The notes under the pieces: generated by a model
The model's database searches: none
What the model was told of the DNA's origin: nothing
What the model saw: only the letters and a program-made list of their open reading frames with translations
Shown: piece by piece, positions 6,496 through 18,168 of the stretch
Position numbering within the stretch: position 1 is the stretch's first letter
How the letters are laid out: each line of letters begins with the position of its first letter
Translations under genes and position numbers: made by a program
Origin: Paraspadella gotoi
Lineage: Eukaryota > Animalia > Chaetognatha
Direction of reading: 5' to 3'
Assembly: GCA_051294375.1 (NCBI GenBank)
Contig: CM119271.1
Location: 5,879,991 to 5,943,990 of the forward strand
DNA: 64,000 nt

Positions 6496-6941
6496 CATAA
6501 AATTAGTGATAGATTAGTTAGGATGGGTCGGGTGGGGCACTTATTCGATACTCGTGATTTTGCTATTTTCTATCGCTTTTATGACGTTCAATTAAAGCCC
6601 CCTCCAAAAAAAAATGTAGGCTGGGAATTTTCTGTATTATTTTTTAAACGCAGACTGCGCCGTGCTTATATTGAATATTAATATATCTCTACTTCTTAAA
6701 AAAATCTACCATGAAATGCCAACTCATCGTCTTTCTCTCCCTCTATACTATTTGATAATATTTATTTTAACTTTGATTCTTCAATTTATATTTCGAATTT
6801 TGTACATATAATTTACTTTTTTGCATCTTTCCAAGCTATTAAATCTAAAATGAATGAACGACAGCCACACAGTAGCAAATGAATTTTGAATTTAAAGTGA
6901 TCCTTAGTCGGAAGGAAAAATCTTAAAAAACAAACCCTACA

Positions 6942-9691
6942 ATGAACGGCATGAGCTCCATGCCGTTCGACCCAAAGATGGCGTTTCAGACTGCTATCTT
7001 CGAAGTCGCGATGGAATCTGTTTTAAAAATGTCGAACCTCATCGATCTCAAAGTTTTTATTCTTTTCGAGGACGTCGAAAAACGGCGTCACTTTGGAGGT
7101 CACGAGGATCTTTGCGACTTGTATAACGACGGAATCTTGGAGGCCCAGAAAGGTTAGGAAACCACCATCCTTTTTTTTTGTTCAATAGTCTTCGAGGTTC
7201 CTTTCTCAAACCCCGCTTTCCTCAATTTTTTTTCCACACATCAGGAGACGTAGAACTTGCGGCTGGAAAAACCGATCTTCGAGTGGTCCACAAGAGCGAA
7301 GGCGTACGCGGACGTCTTTACGATCATCGACCGCCCGCTCCCGAGTTGGACGGTCCCTCCGTCTCCTCGTCCAACATTTCTACTTCCTCCAATCTCACGG
7401 TCATTCAGCCTTCGACCCAACAACCTCAAAACCAGTTTTTGGATTCGACAAAATCGAACCAAAAATTCCTTTACGAACAACTCTACAAGCAGCTCCAAAG
7501 CGTTCTTCTCCAGCAAGTCAAACGCGAGCCTCAATCTTTAAATTCCGAAGCGCAGCAACAACAGCAACATCCGGTCCCACAAGGTCAAATATTTGAAAAG
7601 AACTCTCGACAACCTCATCTCGTCGATGACAATGAAGGAACTTCAAGCACGGCAGCAGCTGCGGCGGCTTCTGTGAGTCAGCCGTTAGAGTTAGCCACGT
7701 CATCTCCAACAAAAACCTCCGCCCCTTCGGTCCACTCTATGGCGACGCGATTCCCTCGTGTCGCTGCTTTGGACAATGATTCTTTCGCTATGTCTCCCGA
7801 ATCGCCTCTAAATGAAGCTCATTATTCACCCATTGAAAATCCTGAGCCGGCGGTCAAGATGTCTAAGAGAAATATCCTTAAGGCTGATTTGGAGGAGAGA
7901 TTAAACCTGGAGGAAAATGACGCTTCGGACTGCGGCTCGGACGGCGCTTCATCGGAGCGGAAACGAGGCGCCGCCACCCTCGATGAGGCACTTGATGCAA
8001 AGATCCCGAAGATCGATGAGATCTACGTCACGGACCCCGTGTTGGAGCAAAAGATTAAAAAAATCGAGGAGGACATAGGTTTCGACATCGCCCGAGAATA
8101 CCACGACAAAACCAAGCACCTGCTCAGCAACGTCCGACAGCCCCGCCAACCCAGCTCCCCTCTGACGTCGGCCAATTTTGACGGGCGCATGCGCCAAATC
8201 GTTGTCAAACACCACGCCAGCCAGATCATCGTCCACCCTCCGGTGGGTGCCCAGCGCCATAATCCTAACTTTCAGCAGCCTCAAATTATTTACCAGCAGC
8301 AGGCTGTTCCTCAAATCCGGACTTTAGTTCCTAACCCTCCCTATCCGGGACCAGGAACGACGCTCGTTTCTTCGGACGGAGTCCTGAGTTTATGTCCTTC
8401 AACGGAGAGTCAACAGACGACGAGTGGCACTGAGAAAACTGCTATTTCCGCACCTACACCGGTAGACAAACCGCGGATCATTGTAACGGCCGCTTCGGCA
8501 GTTGAACGTTCCGTTGCTGCCAAGAACAAAGAGATCGCCTCTATCGTGACCCCCCCACTCAGCGTTTTTCCTGGAAGGACGATCGCCGCAAACCCCTCCG
8601 GTTCCATTACTCGAGTTCCAGACGTTGGCCACTACATAATCGTTACTCCCAGCACCCCAATGGCGTCGGCCGTCTTTACGTCATCGTCACCCGGGACTGC
8701 TAAATTGTCTACCATTGGCGCCGGTTCCAGTACCATTCCATCGTCGATCAACATTCCGGTCTCTAACGTTGGCACCGTTTCTAGTGCGGTTCCATCGACA
8801 ATATCTACCTTAGATAATTCCAGCTCTGTTTCTTTGACCACCATCGATGATCTCGCCAAGGGCGTTTTGACGGGTGTTCAAGGCAACGTCTTCAAAAAAG
8901 ATCTCATCAAAAAAGTTGACGATTTGGACGGGATTCCTTCCTCGGGTATTTCATGTGCGTCATCTTCGGTAGTTAGTCGGAACTTGAACCTCGAGTCTTC
9001 TATGTCAAAATCCCCGATTTCCTCTGCGTCGACAACATTGCCGTCGATTTCCGGGAAACCTCTCGGCGCTGTTATCGTTCCTTCGTCGAAAGACCCGCCG
9101 TCCACCCGCGCGTGCTCGACGGGAAAAGAGGAACCCAACCAGGCTGAACTTATGATTAAGCTGTACCAAACTTTAGCCGAGGTGGTTTTCGGACCTCAGG
9201 GAGCGGATCGTCCAGAGTCCTCGGCAGTGACGTCACAGACTAGGCAAGACCAGCCCAATGGGGTCGTTCTCTCCGATTCGAAGGAGGAGGAAGACGTCGC
9301 GGTGTCGAAAGACCCGACCCCTGAGCATGTTCCGCCCATCGTTTGTCAACCGAGTCGGCAAGTTTTCTCTTTGACCGCGCTGGAGGAGTCCACCGCGGAG
9401 ACTGCGAACGAGGCCGGGAGCCCGTTATCTACGATTTCTGAGGCAACCGTTCAGTCGAGTTCGACCGGTCTCGGCGAGGGAGAGAACGTGTGCCATATTT
9501 GCCAGTACAGGTTCAAAAGGATATCTCATTTGCGTCAACACGTTCAAGAAGTTCACGAAAAAGAACGAAGGTTCAGCTGCGAGATTTGCAGGAGATTGTT
9601 CAAACGGGCCGAGCATCTGAGGAAGCACATGAGAACTGTCCACAAAGGCGCCAAACCGGACGAGGAGAGCGAGTGCATCGTTCTCACATGA
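6942..9691 (+). CDS. C2H2 zinc-finger protein A: shared N-terminal domain, long S/T/Q/P-rich linker, 2 C-terminal fingers (exons 6942-7152, 7245-9691)
   Basis: A GT-AG intron at 7153-7244 joins AQK|GDVEL in frame. Fingers are CHIC-x12-HVQEVH and CEIC-x12-HMRTVH. Confidence 0.88.
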
Positions 9692-12089: not shown

Positions 12090-12338
12090 TAACAAATTCC
12101 TATATTGTCAATTCTTTCGACCCATGTGAATTTTTTTAATCAAAGATGAAAGCAGTATTCGTATCCGTCCAAACTTCTTTCTGTGATCTCACAAACTTAT
12201 TTTCGTGAATTGTTCTATTCCGCACACAATTTTGTATATTTTTACACAATTTAGCTTCTTAGAGTGTAATTACATGACGTAATTATTATTATTTAAAATA
12301 TTCCTGATTTACAGTCCAACATTCAACGAATTAAAAAA

Positions 12339-13427
12339 ATGTCAGTCGCCCGATCCGACGTCACGGAGGCCGTGGAAAGTCAAACTTTCGAAATTCTCAT
12401 GGAGTCTGTGTTAAAGATGTCGAAACTTATGAATGTCTCCGTCTTCCTCCTAGTGGAAAACCGTTTGCGGCAGCGATGTTACGGTGGCAGCGACGCTTTC
12501 TGCCTCGCCTACTCAAAAGGCCGCATGAGGGCTCGGGCCGGCGACCTTCGTCTCGGCGTTGAGGATCTCGACGCTGAAGTGGAGGAGGAAGATTGGTTGG
12601 CGAGAGTTGAGGACGTCGACGAAGAGTCCGTCAAGTCACGACGGAGCGACGTTGACTACGTTCCCGATGAGTACGACGATGTCGCTTCGAACGAAAATGA
12701 TGACGTCTCGGAGTTTTCCCTGTCGACGCACGACGGAAGAACGCGACGGCACCGACCGAAAAAGAAATCCAATCGACGGAATTTTTCTTCGTCGCCCGAG
12801 GAGAGAGGCGCTGACGATTACGACGACGGCGTGGTTGTCGGGGACGAGGGCGGATGTGGCGCCAATGACGCCGACTTCGCGCGGCAGATCCGCGATTACG
12901 CTGAGGGTCGCGGCGGTTACGAAGATTCGTGGGACGCCGACGTCGTGGAATTCCTGAGATTTCAAGATGATGATGATGATGATGACGATTATCGTCGCGA
13001 TGTGAACCGTGTTGACGACGTTGTCGACCACGACGACACCTCTGCCACTGACGATGAATGGAAACCGGTAAATTATGGCAAGGGAAAAATATATCAGCGA
13101 GAAAGACGAAAATACATTTCGAAGGAGAAAAAAAGAAAAGCCCGGATGAGCGAGGAGGCTGCGGCGGCGGCGACGTCGGCAAACTCTGATAAAAAACCTT
13201 TCAAAGTCGAAAAGTCCGAATCGGCGGCGCCTGAAGCCGATAAGAAAAATTACACTTCCGGTAGTTGTCCTTACTGCGATCAACATTTTAACAAGTTAAA
13301 ACAGCATGTGCAGGACGTTCATGAATGCGAAAGAAAGTACTCTTGCGAGATTTGCGCCAAGAGATTTAAAAGAGACTCCCACTTGAGGCAGCACTTGAAA
13401 GGCGTTCACAAAATCTATTTAAATTGA
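12339..13427 (+). CDS. C2H2 zinc-finger protein B, single exon: shared N-terminal domain, D/E-rich linker, 2 C-terminal fingers
   Basis: Uninterrupted 362-aa ORF. CPYC...HVQDVH-ECERKYS-CEICAKRFKRDSHLRQHLKGVH is closely similar to the gene A fingers. Confidence 0.88.
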   Translation: MSVARSDVTEAVESQTFEILMESVLKMSKLMNVSVFLLVENRLRQRCYGGSDAFCLAYSKGRMRARAGDLRLGVEDLDAEVEEEDWLARVEDVDEESVKSRRSDVDYVPDEYDDVASNENDDVSEFSLSTHDGRTRRHRPKKKSNRRNFSSSPEERGADDYDDGVVVGDEGGCGANDADFARQIRDYAEGRGGYEDSWDADVVEFLRFQDDDDDDDDYRRDVNRVDDVVDHDDTSATDDEWKPVNYGKGKIYQRERRKYISKEKKRKARMSEEAAAAATSANSDKKPFKVEKSESAAPEADKKNYTSGSCPYCDQHFNKLKQHVQDVHECERKYSCEICAKRFKRDSHLRQHLKGVHKIYLN

Positions 13428-13916: not shown

Positions 13917-16900
13917 ATGATTTTGCCGACAATGGAAACTTCCGCCTTCGAGATTCTGATGGAATCGGTGCTCAAGATGTCGTCCCTGATGGACGTGAGC
14001 GTGTTCGTGCTGGTAGAGAACCGCAACAATCAGCGGCGCTTCGGAGGAAGCAACCACCTCTGCGACATGTACTCAGGCGGCCGTCTCGAGGGCGAGGCCG
14101 ACGACGTTCGGCTGAAAGTCGACGGGCCGGCGACTGACTTGAAGTCGGTCGAATCGGGGAAGAAAGCGGAGGGAGATAATACTGAGGTAGGACGTTAGGA
14201 AGCGTGACTTTCGGGTCTTTTGACTCAAAAGTGAAGTTAGTTAATATTTTCTCAGAACTGTGTGTATTGATCCGTGATGTTTCTAGAATTGGATGACGGA
14301 CGGTTCGGATCGGATCGTTTGCACGTCGGGAAAACGAAGGGCGGAGGTCAATTCGGCGTCGGCAAAAAAGCCACGCACCGTTTCTCAGTTCATGAACGAG
14401 AGATATCCATGTACGTTTTATTCCACGTTTCTCCTTTTATTTTTCTCGTTTCGTGCCCTTTTTTTCATAAATGTCATTTTTTCATCTTGGAGTCCTTCGT
14501 CTCAGCACACTGTTTTTGTTTCCGAGAGTACTTATTTACCGATTTGCTATATATTTTATTGTATATTTTTATTTTACTTCCGTTTTCTTTTTTTTCCTTC
14601 TCTAAATATTATTCAAGACATTGTTTTTCTTTTAGCGGCCGACGCGGAGAACACTGAACCTCCAGACGACAACGATCAAAATTTCCAAAATCAGGAAGTC
14701 TTTGCCGAAATCAGCGGATATTACGACGAGGAGCAGGAGGTCGGATTCGGTCGTCAAAACTACCAAGAGGTGAGAGAGAAAAAGAGATGAATCATGAAGA
14801 GAGGGTTGTTAAACCTGAAGCATTGTTCTCTCTCTTTCGTCAGTCCAACGAGGAAGAATGGAACGAAAACGTTGAAACGCCGAGTACAAGACGAACTTCC
14901 AGACGGACAAGAAAATTGCGATCTACCGACTTTTCCGACGACTATTTCCCAGCTCCCGTGAGTCAGAATTTTTGGCAGTCTAATCTTTGTTTTGGTTCTT
15001 TTTTTAGTTTTACGTTTTGAAACAATATTTTTTTTAGGTAACACCGAAACAAGGTAAACAGAAGTTCAAGAAGAAAAGTCTGGATCAGCCGCTAGAACAA
15101 TACGATTGCAACGAAACCATCACCGTTGAAATGAAAGACGTTCAACCTTGGGGTGAGCTTTTCATTTTTACCTAGTGTGTCGGATGAAATCAAGAGTTTG
15201 TATTTAAACTGTACTACTTCATCCCCAAGCTATAGAATCGAACGGTGCGGGCGTGTTGGTGCCGTCAACTGCAAAGCCTGCCCCCAACATGCCCTACATG
15301 TGTGCCAGCGAAGAGTGTGCCACTAAGGCGAACACGTACTACAAGAGTAAAGACCTCAAAGACCACATCGTAACCCATCATGGAAAAGACATGTTCTTTG
15401 ATTGCGATTCTTGTCATACGCAAAGTCTTAGATTTAAGGTATATATTATTTCATTCCTTCTTTCATTCTCTTATCTGCTTTTTCGCTCGTTTGCCTTTTT
15501 TTTTCTTCCTTCCTATTATTCCACCAATTTCTTATTCTTTTCTCTTCTATTCAGGACATGAAGAAACACTTAAAAGAGTCCCATGGCATCACTCAAACCT
15601 TTATCTGCTTCATTTGTTATCGCGGTTTCATCGCTGGCACCCTGTATCACAAACACTGGGATGAGTACCACGACCGTAGCTGTAGGTATTGCTACATAAC
15701 CCTGCCCACCCTCGACGAGCTGAAGGATCATCTTGTCATCGTTCATCAAAAGGTTTACGATCAGGTTAGACGTAGTATTCGCTGGTTTGAATTGTGGCTT
15801 AGCCTTAGTTACATATTTAAATTACGACCGAGTATTTTTACATTAAAATTCTTCATGAGATCGTCTGTAGCGCTCAATGTATAACTAAAGCTGTTGTTTA
15901 AACCTCTCTTTGCCATGAAAGCAGGGGAATCCCGAGATTAATCCCAGGATGCATGCACGTAACCCGAAATTACTGCTTCGTTTTATTCAATACAAGTACT
16001 TGGTACTTGGTGCAACTGTATTGTACAGAAAAAGCGTTATTTTTTCAGTAACGGGATACCCGGAAAATGCAATCAGATGATCAAAAATTTAATTCGACGT
16101 AATTTTAAGCATTTTAGTACATTCTTGGAAGCGGGGCGAGGTATCATTAAAAGCTTTTTGTGTATATGATTCATACTTCTGTAGTCATTTGATCATTATT
16201 TATTACGTTGACGTACTAAACTTTAAATAAAAGTGGTGCAACAAATTGAAGTTTAATCTTAAAAAATAAAAAAATAATCTTATAGCAAAAATCGAAATCC
16301 GGCGGCGCCGGAAGTGCAAAGAACGCGCCATACCTGTGCAAATTGGAAGAGTGCGGCCTCACTTTCCACCAACAGCAGCAACTTTACGGCCATATTAGGA
16401 ACAACCACGGAAAGAACATCCGTTTCTACTGTAGCATCTGTCAAGAGGCGCAATTGGGACTGACTTTCACCGAGATCCGTTCTCACTTGATTGCCGATCA
16501 CGGTGCCAAGGTACGGTTCTAATAGAAAAGTGAACTGACTGCCTCTGAGTATCTCTACTATAATCCAAGTACTTTTTTGTTGTTTTTCCCCGTTGGTTTT
16601 GATTTTGATGATATTTTTATTTTGTTCAAAATCTGATTAACGACACTTCAACTCGTCTTCAGGTTAGTTTCTTATGCTATGTGGACGGATGCTTTCGCGC
16701 GTTCAAGGACAAAGAGCTTTACTTGGAGCATAAAAAGCTAGAACACGCTCATGAGTGCCGTTACTGCTTGTCCTGCTTTCCCTCCGACGATGATCTCCAA
16801 AATCACACCAAGGTTCGTTTCTCGATCTTTTGTCGTTTTCAAATTTGAAAGAACCCCCGACACGACTGGGGGGGGGGAGAGAATCCTGAAGTTTCTTTAT

Positions 16901-17294
16901 CCACTTTTCGTCTTGATATTAATTAACCTCAATAAAATAAAGCATATGGATATTCAAACAGTCAATAATTGCTATCTAATCATCAAATATTAATCAAATA
17001 GCAATAATTAATCGAATAAGCAAATCCACAAATATTCCTCGAAGTATCCACGTTGAAAACGTTTATTTCACATTGATGAGAGACAAATGATGAGACGGAA
17101 GTCGATTTCTCTCTTTACCGATGTAAAAGAGCATCTGCCTTACACATAGTCGTCTGGACTTACAAATTTAATATCTTCCACAGCATATCCATTCCATCCT
17201 CGACGAGGGTGGACTGACTTGTCGAAAATGCGGGATGCTCTGCGTAGACAACTATAAACTGAAGGTTCATCAACAGAGATGTTGGCATCGTTAA
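13917..17294 (+). CDS. C2H2 zinc-finger protein C, multi-exon: shared N-terminal domain and ~9 fingers
   Basis: Exon 1 carries the shared domain. Finger exons lie at ~15230-15438, 15555-15764, 16286-16510, 16663-16812 and 17184-17294 (CASEEC, CDSC, CFIC, CRYC, CKLEEC, CSIC, CYVDGC, CRYC, CRKC). Confidence 0.8.
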
Positions 17295-18168
17295 AACGCG
17301 GCTTCGGCGATGACGACTACGGGAATGATAAACTAGGAATCTCTTCCTGTTCCTTGGAACAGGCGATGTGAAAAAAAAAATTAGTTTCTCTTTAGTTTAT
17401 TGTTAAGAATTTAAAAAATCAACAAGAAACTTTTCTCATCAACATTTTTTAACTGTCTATACAGCTACTATTTAATTATTTTTATAAAAGAATCTGAATC
17501 GTCCTTTTTTTTTTTATCGTCGCAATCGCTAAGCGTTTGCGACGATATTGTAACGCTTTTGCGCATAAGTGGCGTCGGCGTCGTCGTTGTTGCAAAATGT
17601 AATTTTTCTTTCTGTTTATAATCTAATTTTCTTTTCTCAAATTTTCTTTTTTTTAGTATCAAAATTTGTCATCAATCAAGATATTTCTTATGCGATTGCG
17701 ACGATCCTTATGCTTTTAAGATTTTTTTTTTTGGCGTACGTAAAACACCCGAAAACTTGTAACTACTGGCCAGAGGGTTTTTTACCTACGTTTATGGAAA
17801 AGTTCACTTTTCTCGCCCTATGATTACAATGTTCTATATTATTCCCTTCATTTGACTTAATGTTGTATAAATTCTCTAGGCCTAATAAAATTTTATTATC
17901 AGGAAATTTATATTTATCTTTATTTTAATTTGGCGTATGAATTACTTTGAATTAAAATGGTTCCTAGACTTTGAAAAAATACATATAACATTTACAAATG
18001 ATGTTGCCATTCATTCTTTAGGTTTTAGACGTGTTAGATATGTAGACTATTTTGGACGCCCTTGTATATTAGTTTATTACTTTATTTGAATTTTATAGCG
18101 ATGTGCTCAAGGTTAAAAGCTTCGTTGAACTGACAGCTTGTTTCTGCCCATCCTGAATTCAAAACGTT

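Follow-up and report, generated by a model that had tools for sequence, protein, structure and literature searches.

Can the fold of the MADS box be kept for pairing once the residues that read DNA have gone from it? A short segment of the Paraspadella gotoi genome raises this question. The window that we analyzed, a 64,000-nucleotide stretch of animal DNA with short GT-AG introns, holds at 12387-12554 a segment that translates as residues 17-72 of a single-exon open reading frame (ORF), 12339-13427. The original prediction had called this segment a "ZNF domain" common to three neighboring genes and had read it as a MADS-box core that lost its basic DNA-contacting residues and was reused purely for dimerization. 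The MADS domain of animals is known to both pair and read DNA.

Three neighboring genes share an N-terminal head

Searches with tblastn and with a family profile confirmed that the domain, 70 residues long and referred to here as the head, is common to the neighboring genes A, B and C (Table 1). Compared with the head of B, the copy in A (6951-7152) is 41% identical (E 5e-13) and the copy beginning at 13932 in C is 60% identical (E 5e-22). A six-frame search with the family profile recovered all three and yielded no fourth copy in the window below E 1.4. The predicted segment contains the motif that had been quoted as MADS-like, an R-x-Y-G-G strand and then a helix. All three genes terminate in C2H2 fingers, in agreement with the proposal that DNA reading is left to a separate tail.

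Run X9 was taken as RNA by guess, and the GT-AG joints in it show that it holds spliced transcripts; A, B and C are all transcribed in this run. A single contig spans 12315-13652 without a joint, which indicates that gene B is unspliced. The exon joint across the intron of gene A is present in X9. Exon 1 of A, with candidate starts at 6942, 6951 or 6978, runs to 7152 and encodes most of the head. Later exons of gene C were inferred from reading frames and from the end of relative P0005, and the C head begins at the initiator methionine, equivalent to family position 12. When this head was compared with that of a related organism, eight of nine changed codons were synonymous among the differences listed (10 of 23).

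The A contig carries a 21-letter 5' leader with no match within the window. Its final ten letters equal the end of the chaetognath spliced-leader forms SL3.1 and SL3.2, as given in Table 3 of PMC2481426; the remainder differs. The B contig begins at 12315, with five unmatched letters. Five same-strand genes are tightly packed between 4311 and 17294 (a pyridine nucleotide-disulphide oxidoreductase, A, a trichoplein-like gene, B and C), and three of them, A, the trichoplein-like gene and B, have RNA contigs that start right behind AG acceptors at 6835, 10354 and 12314. Such packing and such starts are as expected for trans-spliced, operon-like genes. Taken with the one leader, the packing probably marks the window as arrow worm DNA. 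Just downstream of C, at 17510-17730, lies a high-copy interspersed repeat, whose depth in each of runs X9 and X6 reaches thousands.

Two motifs recur in the linker between the head and the fingers of B. A short acidic-then-basic motif before the fingers (13062-13145) is common to B and relatives P0001-P0003, P0010 and P0011, and a second motif upstream of it, at about 12880-12920, is common to B and P0001-P0003. These motifs are possible cofactor or nuclear-import signals.

Table 1. Coordinates of genes A, B and C and of the features of gene B within the window.
Feature	Position	Strand	Description
Gene A, about 880 aa	6942..9691	+	Exon 1; intron at 7153-7244; exon 2, with two C2H2 fingers at its end
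AG acceptor of A	6834..6835	+	The A RNA contig gains its 21-letter leader here
Gene B, single-exon ORF, 362 aa	12339..13427	+	Predicted MADS-fold head, then an acidic linker of low complexity and two C2H2 fingers at the C terminus
AG acceptor of B, likely trans-splice site	12313..12314	+	Adjoins the first base of the B RNA contig
Predicted MADS-fold head of B, residues 3-75	12345..12563	+	Exceeds the originally predicted 12387-12554 at both ends
Helix 1 of B head, residues 3-30	12345..12428	+	AlphaFold2 model and column counts
Beta hairpin of B head, residues 35-50	12441..12488	+	Model and family columns
Helix 2 of B head, residues 52-59	12492..12515	+	Model and structural alignment
Two C2H2 fingers of B	13266..13409	+	13266-13322 short-spaced; 13344-13409 canonical
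Gene C, multi-exon, multi-finger C2H2 tail	13932..17294	+	Six joints in run X9; translation

The head is predicted to adopt a MADS-like fold

A profile built from the three heads was searched against 1.84 billion representatives and matched 126 proteins with E-values of 0.001 or better; the head is N-terminal in nearly all of them. The family members that we looked up come from metagenome-type sources. A separate scan of metagenome contigs gave 262 pattern matches and no relative.

We modeled the B head with AlphaFold2, template-free, from a 125-row alignment that held no MADS protein. The model (mean pLDDT 84.9, pTM 0.65), in which AlphaFold may lean on memorized MADS structures, comprises a helix at residues 3-30, strands at 36-39 and 47-50, and a second helix at 52-59; this is the helix, beta-hairpin and helix arrangement that had been anticipated. 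Helix 1, the counterpart of the DNA-binding and coiled-coil helix of MADS proteins, bears E13, L20, E22, K26 and M27. The hairpin has five hydrophobic residues in succession, F36 and G50 are invariant, and E40 and R46 are nearly so. Helix 2 corresponds to the SAM/MEF2/I-domain helix.

Comparison of this model with 48,161 PDB representative chains in VIA-align gave SRF as the top match (Z 6.8, rmsd 3.1, 62 aligned), followed by MEF2D (Z 6.2, rmsd 3.0, 76 aligned), SEP3 (Z 6.0, rmsd 2.8, 57 aligned), MEF2A (Z 5.7, rmsd 3.1, 62 aligned) and NRF1 (Z 5.2, rmsd 3.5, 60 aligned). Only these five chains reached Z 5 or more, with the next row at 3.9, and values under 8 (here 5-7) can represent a common arrangement for small folds. 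The five top rows nevertheless all represent a single fold, which had been named beforehand, and they are well separated from the rest. The helix, the two-stranded hairpin and the second helix superpose on SRF and MEF2 with Z 5.7-6.8 and rmsd 2.7-3.5, and the SRF and MEF2 scores are tied. Model residues 2-63 lie on SRF 150-211 at an offset of +148, and the offset to MEF2 and SEP3 is +8, which bears out the gap-free register that had been proposed against SRF. E22 and S23 fall on the two positions that the original prediction had named as lysines, and which we take to be lysines in SRF. Foldseek gave no match at E 0.001 (best E 0.2); all of its matches listed to rank 39 were MEF2, SRF, SEP3 or MCM1, and NRF1 appeared at rank 48.

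The sequence signal is weak and confined to the C-terminal half of the Pfam SRF-TF profile (PF00319), which was matched by 8 of 125 members at E 0.006-0.32. Of these matches, seven start at profile position 19 and one at position 10, and all end at 43-46 of 48. Their scores, of which the best among the 125 members is 16.4 bits, fall far short of the curated threshold, 26 bits. SRF-TF was the only non-finger Pfam family with more than two members matching, among the matches listed (25 of 81 families). The heads of A, B and C had no Pfam match at E 10, and the window heads alone had no match among PDB sequences or in the ESM Atlas. Searches of PDB sequences with the family profile at E 10, with a 53-sequence profile and with P0058 retrieved no MADS chain. 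In the Atlas, residues 1-90 of P0059 had SRF-TF clusters as their top three neighbors (0.88-0.89), a result of lead strength only. The nearest feature neighbors there include several fungal clusters of 70-79 residues with partial SRF-TF annotation, which may be other degenerate MADS folds.

A generic amphipathic helix with a hairpin could look MADS-like by convergence or as an artefact of prediction, and identities of 10-18%, Z values under 8 and E-values that are not significant speak for such a chance likeness. We consider this explanation highly improbable. Two structure aligners, a profile of the sequence and features from a language model agree on a family that had been named beforehand, and they agree on one register. 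Moreover, a match to the pre-named family at E 0.006 among 24,736 models amounts to about 3e-5 after 125 tries, which are not independent because the members are not. The prediction of a MADS-like fold is well supported. We describe the head as MADS-derived or MADS-like and not as a MADS-box factor, because the DNA-contact residues are lost, as detailed below, and the profile scores fall short of the curated cut-off.

The presence of NRF1 among the five structural matches raises a different parentage, in which the head descends from the NRF1/EWG dimerization domain and not from SRF or MEF2, with its function unchanged. NRF1 has an equal layout of head, linker and reader. Its structural-alignment identity is 7%, versus 10-14% for the MADS chains; no NRF1 family was found among the best 25 of 81 Pfam families, where SRF-TF was matched instead; and the Atlas neighbors are SRF-TF clusters. 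NRF1 descent is quite unlikely on this evidence, and the sequence signals appear to favor MADS as the parent.

DNA-contact residues are lost and the hydrophobic dimer core is kept

We counted residues column by column in 125 family members, with MADS numbering equal to the B model residue plus 8. Positions 17, 25, 30 and 31 we take to be basic DNA-contact positions of MADS proteins. Lysine or arginine was present at the match of position 17 in 0/108 members, at 24 and 25 in 0/121 each, and at 30 and 31 in 0/125 each, position 30 always being E/D. Published contacts to DNA also include the N-terminal arm, R3, K4, R15 and K23 (PMC10178880); here, the match of position 15 was basic in 5/102 members and that of 23 in 22/120. 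Net charge up to K26 has a median of -1 and reached +3 or more in none of the 125 members. Only 18 of 125 have at least 29 residues ahead of E22, and none of these extensions is strongly basic. Judged by these columns, the canonical DNA-contact residues of MADS proteins are lost in the head family.

The original prediction had the basic N-terminal extension absent. That is true only of gene C and some relatives, in which the basic-motif region is missing. In B and most relatives, the region stays helical and its basic residues are swapped for hydrophobic or acidic ones; the first half of helix 1 has mostly been recoded to a leucine-rich amphipathic helix and not deleted.

Leu28 and Leu35 are dimer contacts in SEP3 (PMC8346517). 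Their matches are F/L/I/M/V in 120/121 and 125/125 members, respectively, and the positions of strand 1 are similarly hydrophobic in 122-125 of 125. The column counts are thus in line with the central claim made for this segment, namely that the basic DNA-contact residues were lost and the hydrophobic dimer core was kept.

The word "purely" in that claim has been weakened by the hairpin. R46 is conserved in 96% of members, K/R follows it in 72%, and residues 41-63, from the hairpin to helix 2, are net positive in 93/125. The head might therefore still bind DNA by a changed surface, either the basic hairpin with helix 2 or backbone contacts like those of NRF1, and not be a pure pairing module. 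The dimerization domain of NRF1 contributes non-specific DNA binding and touches the DNA backbone (PMC10810270), and the minority of heads that keep a basic residue at the match of Lys23 would fit this explanation. On helix 1, the face with which MADS proteins contact DNA consists of acidic or hydrophobic residues (the match of position 30 is E/D throughout), and R46 may have no role beyond pairing with E40 across the hairpin. We find a DNA-binding head unlikely; some backbone contact by the hairpin is possible, given its conserved arginine and positive charge.

Paired Arg24-Glu34 salt bridges span the MADS dimer (PMC8346517). This bridge is absent from the head family, in which the match of position 34 is K/R in 125/125 members and that of position 24 is never basic but F/L/I/M/V in 107/121; position 21 is matched by E/D in 113/120. 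A laboratory R24L mutant of MEF2 is DNA-binding-defective and dominant negative (PMC5019174, PMC4918335), and the hydrophobic interface positions are retained in the heads. The proteins could accordingly be natural dominant negatives that heterodimerize with SRF or MEF2 and remove them from DNA. Given the residues at 34 and 21, a mixed dimer would probably oppose arginine and lysine; the size of the family and its own DNA-binding tails also exceed the needs of a decoy. We judge this reading very unlikely, and the suggestion that the three neighbors titrate SRF/MEF2 loses ground with it.

The head is joined to several classes of tail

Tail classes were counted among the 81 relatives longer than 180 residues. 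C2H2-type tails occur in 9 of these, so the label "ZNF domain" does not suit the head, which is not a zinc-finger-specific domain. A quick tree built from 124 heads put the 11 rows with fingers into a single group with weak support (SH-aLRT 81, 73 columns). Pfam identified CENP-B/Tc5 helix-turn-helix domains in the tail of P0016, BED fingers in P0079 (E 1e-4), P0021 (E 0.023) and P0025 (E 0.4), and a PF04500 match, which we take to be FLYWCH, in P0148. The tail of P0029 looks somewhat RFX-like; no Pfam match was obtained for it. We found no clear case of the same head with different tails among 83 proteins, and the two best pairs already diverge in the linker.

The commonest partner of the head is an unnamed C-terminal domain, all helical and basic in its final helix, represented by the last 125 residues of P0053 and present in 45 relatives (46/81 in all). 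Its fold is confidently predicted (pLDDT 92). Structural comparison gave no clear match, with a top Z of 5.4 among unrelated helical rows. Amid those rows are BANP (Z 4.3) and BEND3 (Z 5.1, rmsd 4.4, 90 aligned), which give no more than a weak hint that the modeled domain is BEN-like. Binding of DNA by this common tail is assumed. Two proteins, P0013 and P0074, have two tandem heads followed by a Gly/Tyr/Arg-rich tail without a recognized DNA-binding domain, and the tandem heads could form an intramolecular pseudo-dimer.

Proposed mechanism and comparison with known systems

As modeled, the head is in our view likely to be a MADS-derived fold without the basic residues that read the CArG box, serving as a dimerization module that joins two C-terminal DNA-reading tails. 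As in SRF, MEF2 and NRF1, two heads would pair by means of antiparallel copies of helix 1 and a sheet of four strands. The dimer would offer its tails, which hang on long disordered linkers, to a pair of half-sites, and the two or more C2H2 fingers of each subunit would read one half-site. A and B have two fingers each, too few for specificity by themselves, and pairing would supply it. Across the interface, a reversed charge pair would set the lysine at 34 against the conserved acids at 21 and 30. Partners are probably the protein itself or other family members and not SRF or MEF2, because the Arg24-Glu34 bridge has been replaced; the reversed pair would favor dimers within the family and disfavor pairing with SRF or MEF2. 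A, B and C have the same interface residues and are transcribed in one run, which makes cross-pairing among them plausible.

The head resembles both type I (SRF, MCM1) and type II (MEF2, plant MIKC) MADS proteins in its predicted fold, register and hydrophobic dimer positions. As in SRF and MEF2, it is N-terminal and has a match, here weak, to SRF-TF; the structural match to MEF2 covers 76 residues. It differs from them in having no basic arm, no K/R at 17, 24, 25, 30 and 31, and lysine or arginine in place of Glu34. The head family also differs by its fused DNA-binding tails and by its more than a hundred divergent relatives, whereas the MADS family of animals is described as small (PMC6639411).

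The crystal structure of NRF1 shows an SRF-like dimerization domain, a flexible linker and a separate DNA-binding domain (PMC10810270; PDB 8k4l). The head proteins are alike in combining a MADS-like dimer fold, with the dimer being predicted in their case, with a separate sequence reader. In NRF1 there are additional N-terminal helices and one DNA-binding domain peculiar to it, whereas the head serves several unrelated tail classes. There was no Pfam match to an NRF1-type DNA-binding domain on the A or B ORFs, nor on 76 relatives at E 0.01. Use of a MADS fold for pairing only is already known from NRF1 and is not new in itself.

BTB domains of the Tramtrack group, ZAD and SCAN are lineage-expanded N-terminal pairing modules that are followed by a long disordered linker and a C-terminal C2H2, BED or FLYWCH reader. 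The analogy with these heads concerns the working layout only, as their folds are unrelated to the MADS-like head; the heads had no Pfam match to BTB, ZAD, SCAN or KRAB at E 10.

Implications for chaetognath biology

We found no description of the head family in the literature on chaetognaths and MADS or MADS-like dimerization. There is no mention of MADS in the text or three supplements of PMC12460157, and the large gene table of that paper, outside this check, may bear on novelty. The same study reports up to 2,250 gene families specific to the chaetognath phylum, the majority of which lack Pfam domains. It argues against a failure to detect homology as the cause, and it describes promoter motifs that match no known factor. 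The head family offers a testable case of phylum-specific-type genes with an ancient fold, and its members are candidate binders for those unexplained promoter motifs.

A broader reading, which we put forward tentatively and hold to be possible rather than probable, is that arrow worms have a phylum-specific transcription factor system built on a DNA-blind, charge-recoded MADS dimerization head, unable to pair with SRF/MEF2 and shuffled among many readers (C2H2, BED, CENP-B, FLYWCH and the undescribed helical domain). If this is true, some "chaetognath-specific" gene families would be old folds masked by divergence, and the system would be the MADS-fold counterpart of the BTB/ZAD system of insects, with a combinatorial dimer code. 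A large family that keeps only the pairing half of the MADS domain, on several unrelated readers, would represent a new route of transcription factor innovation.
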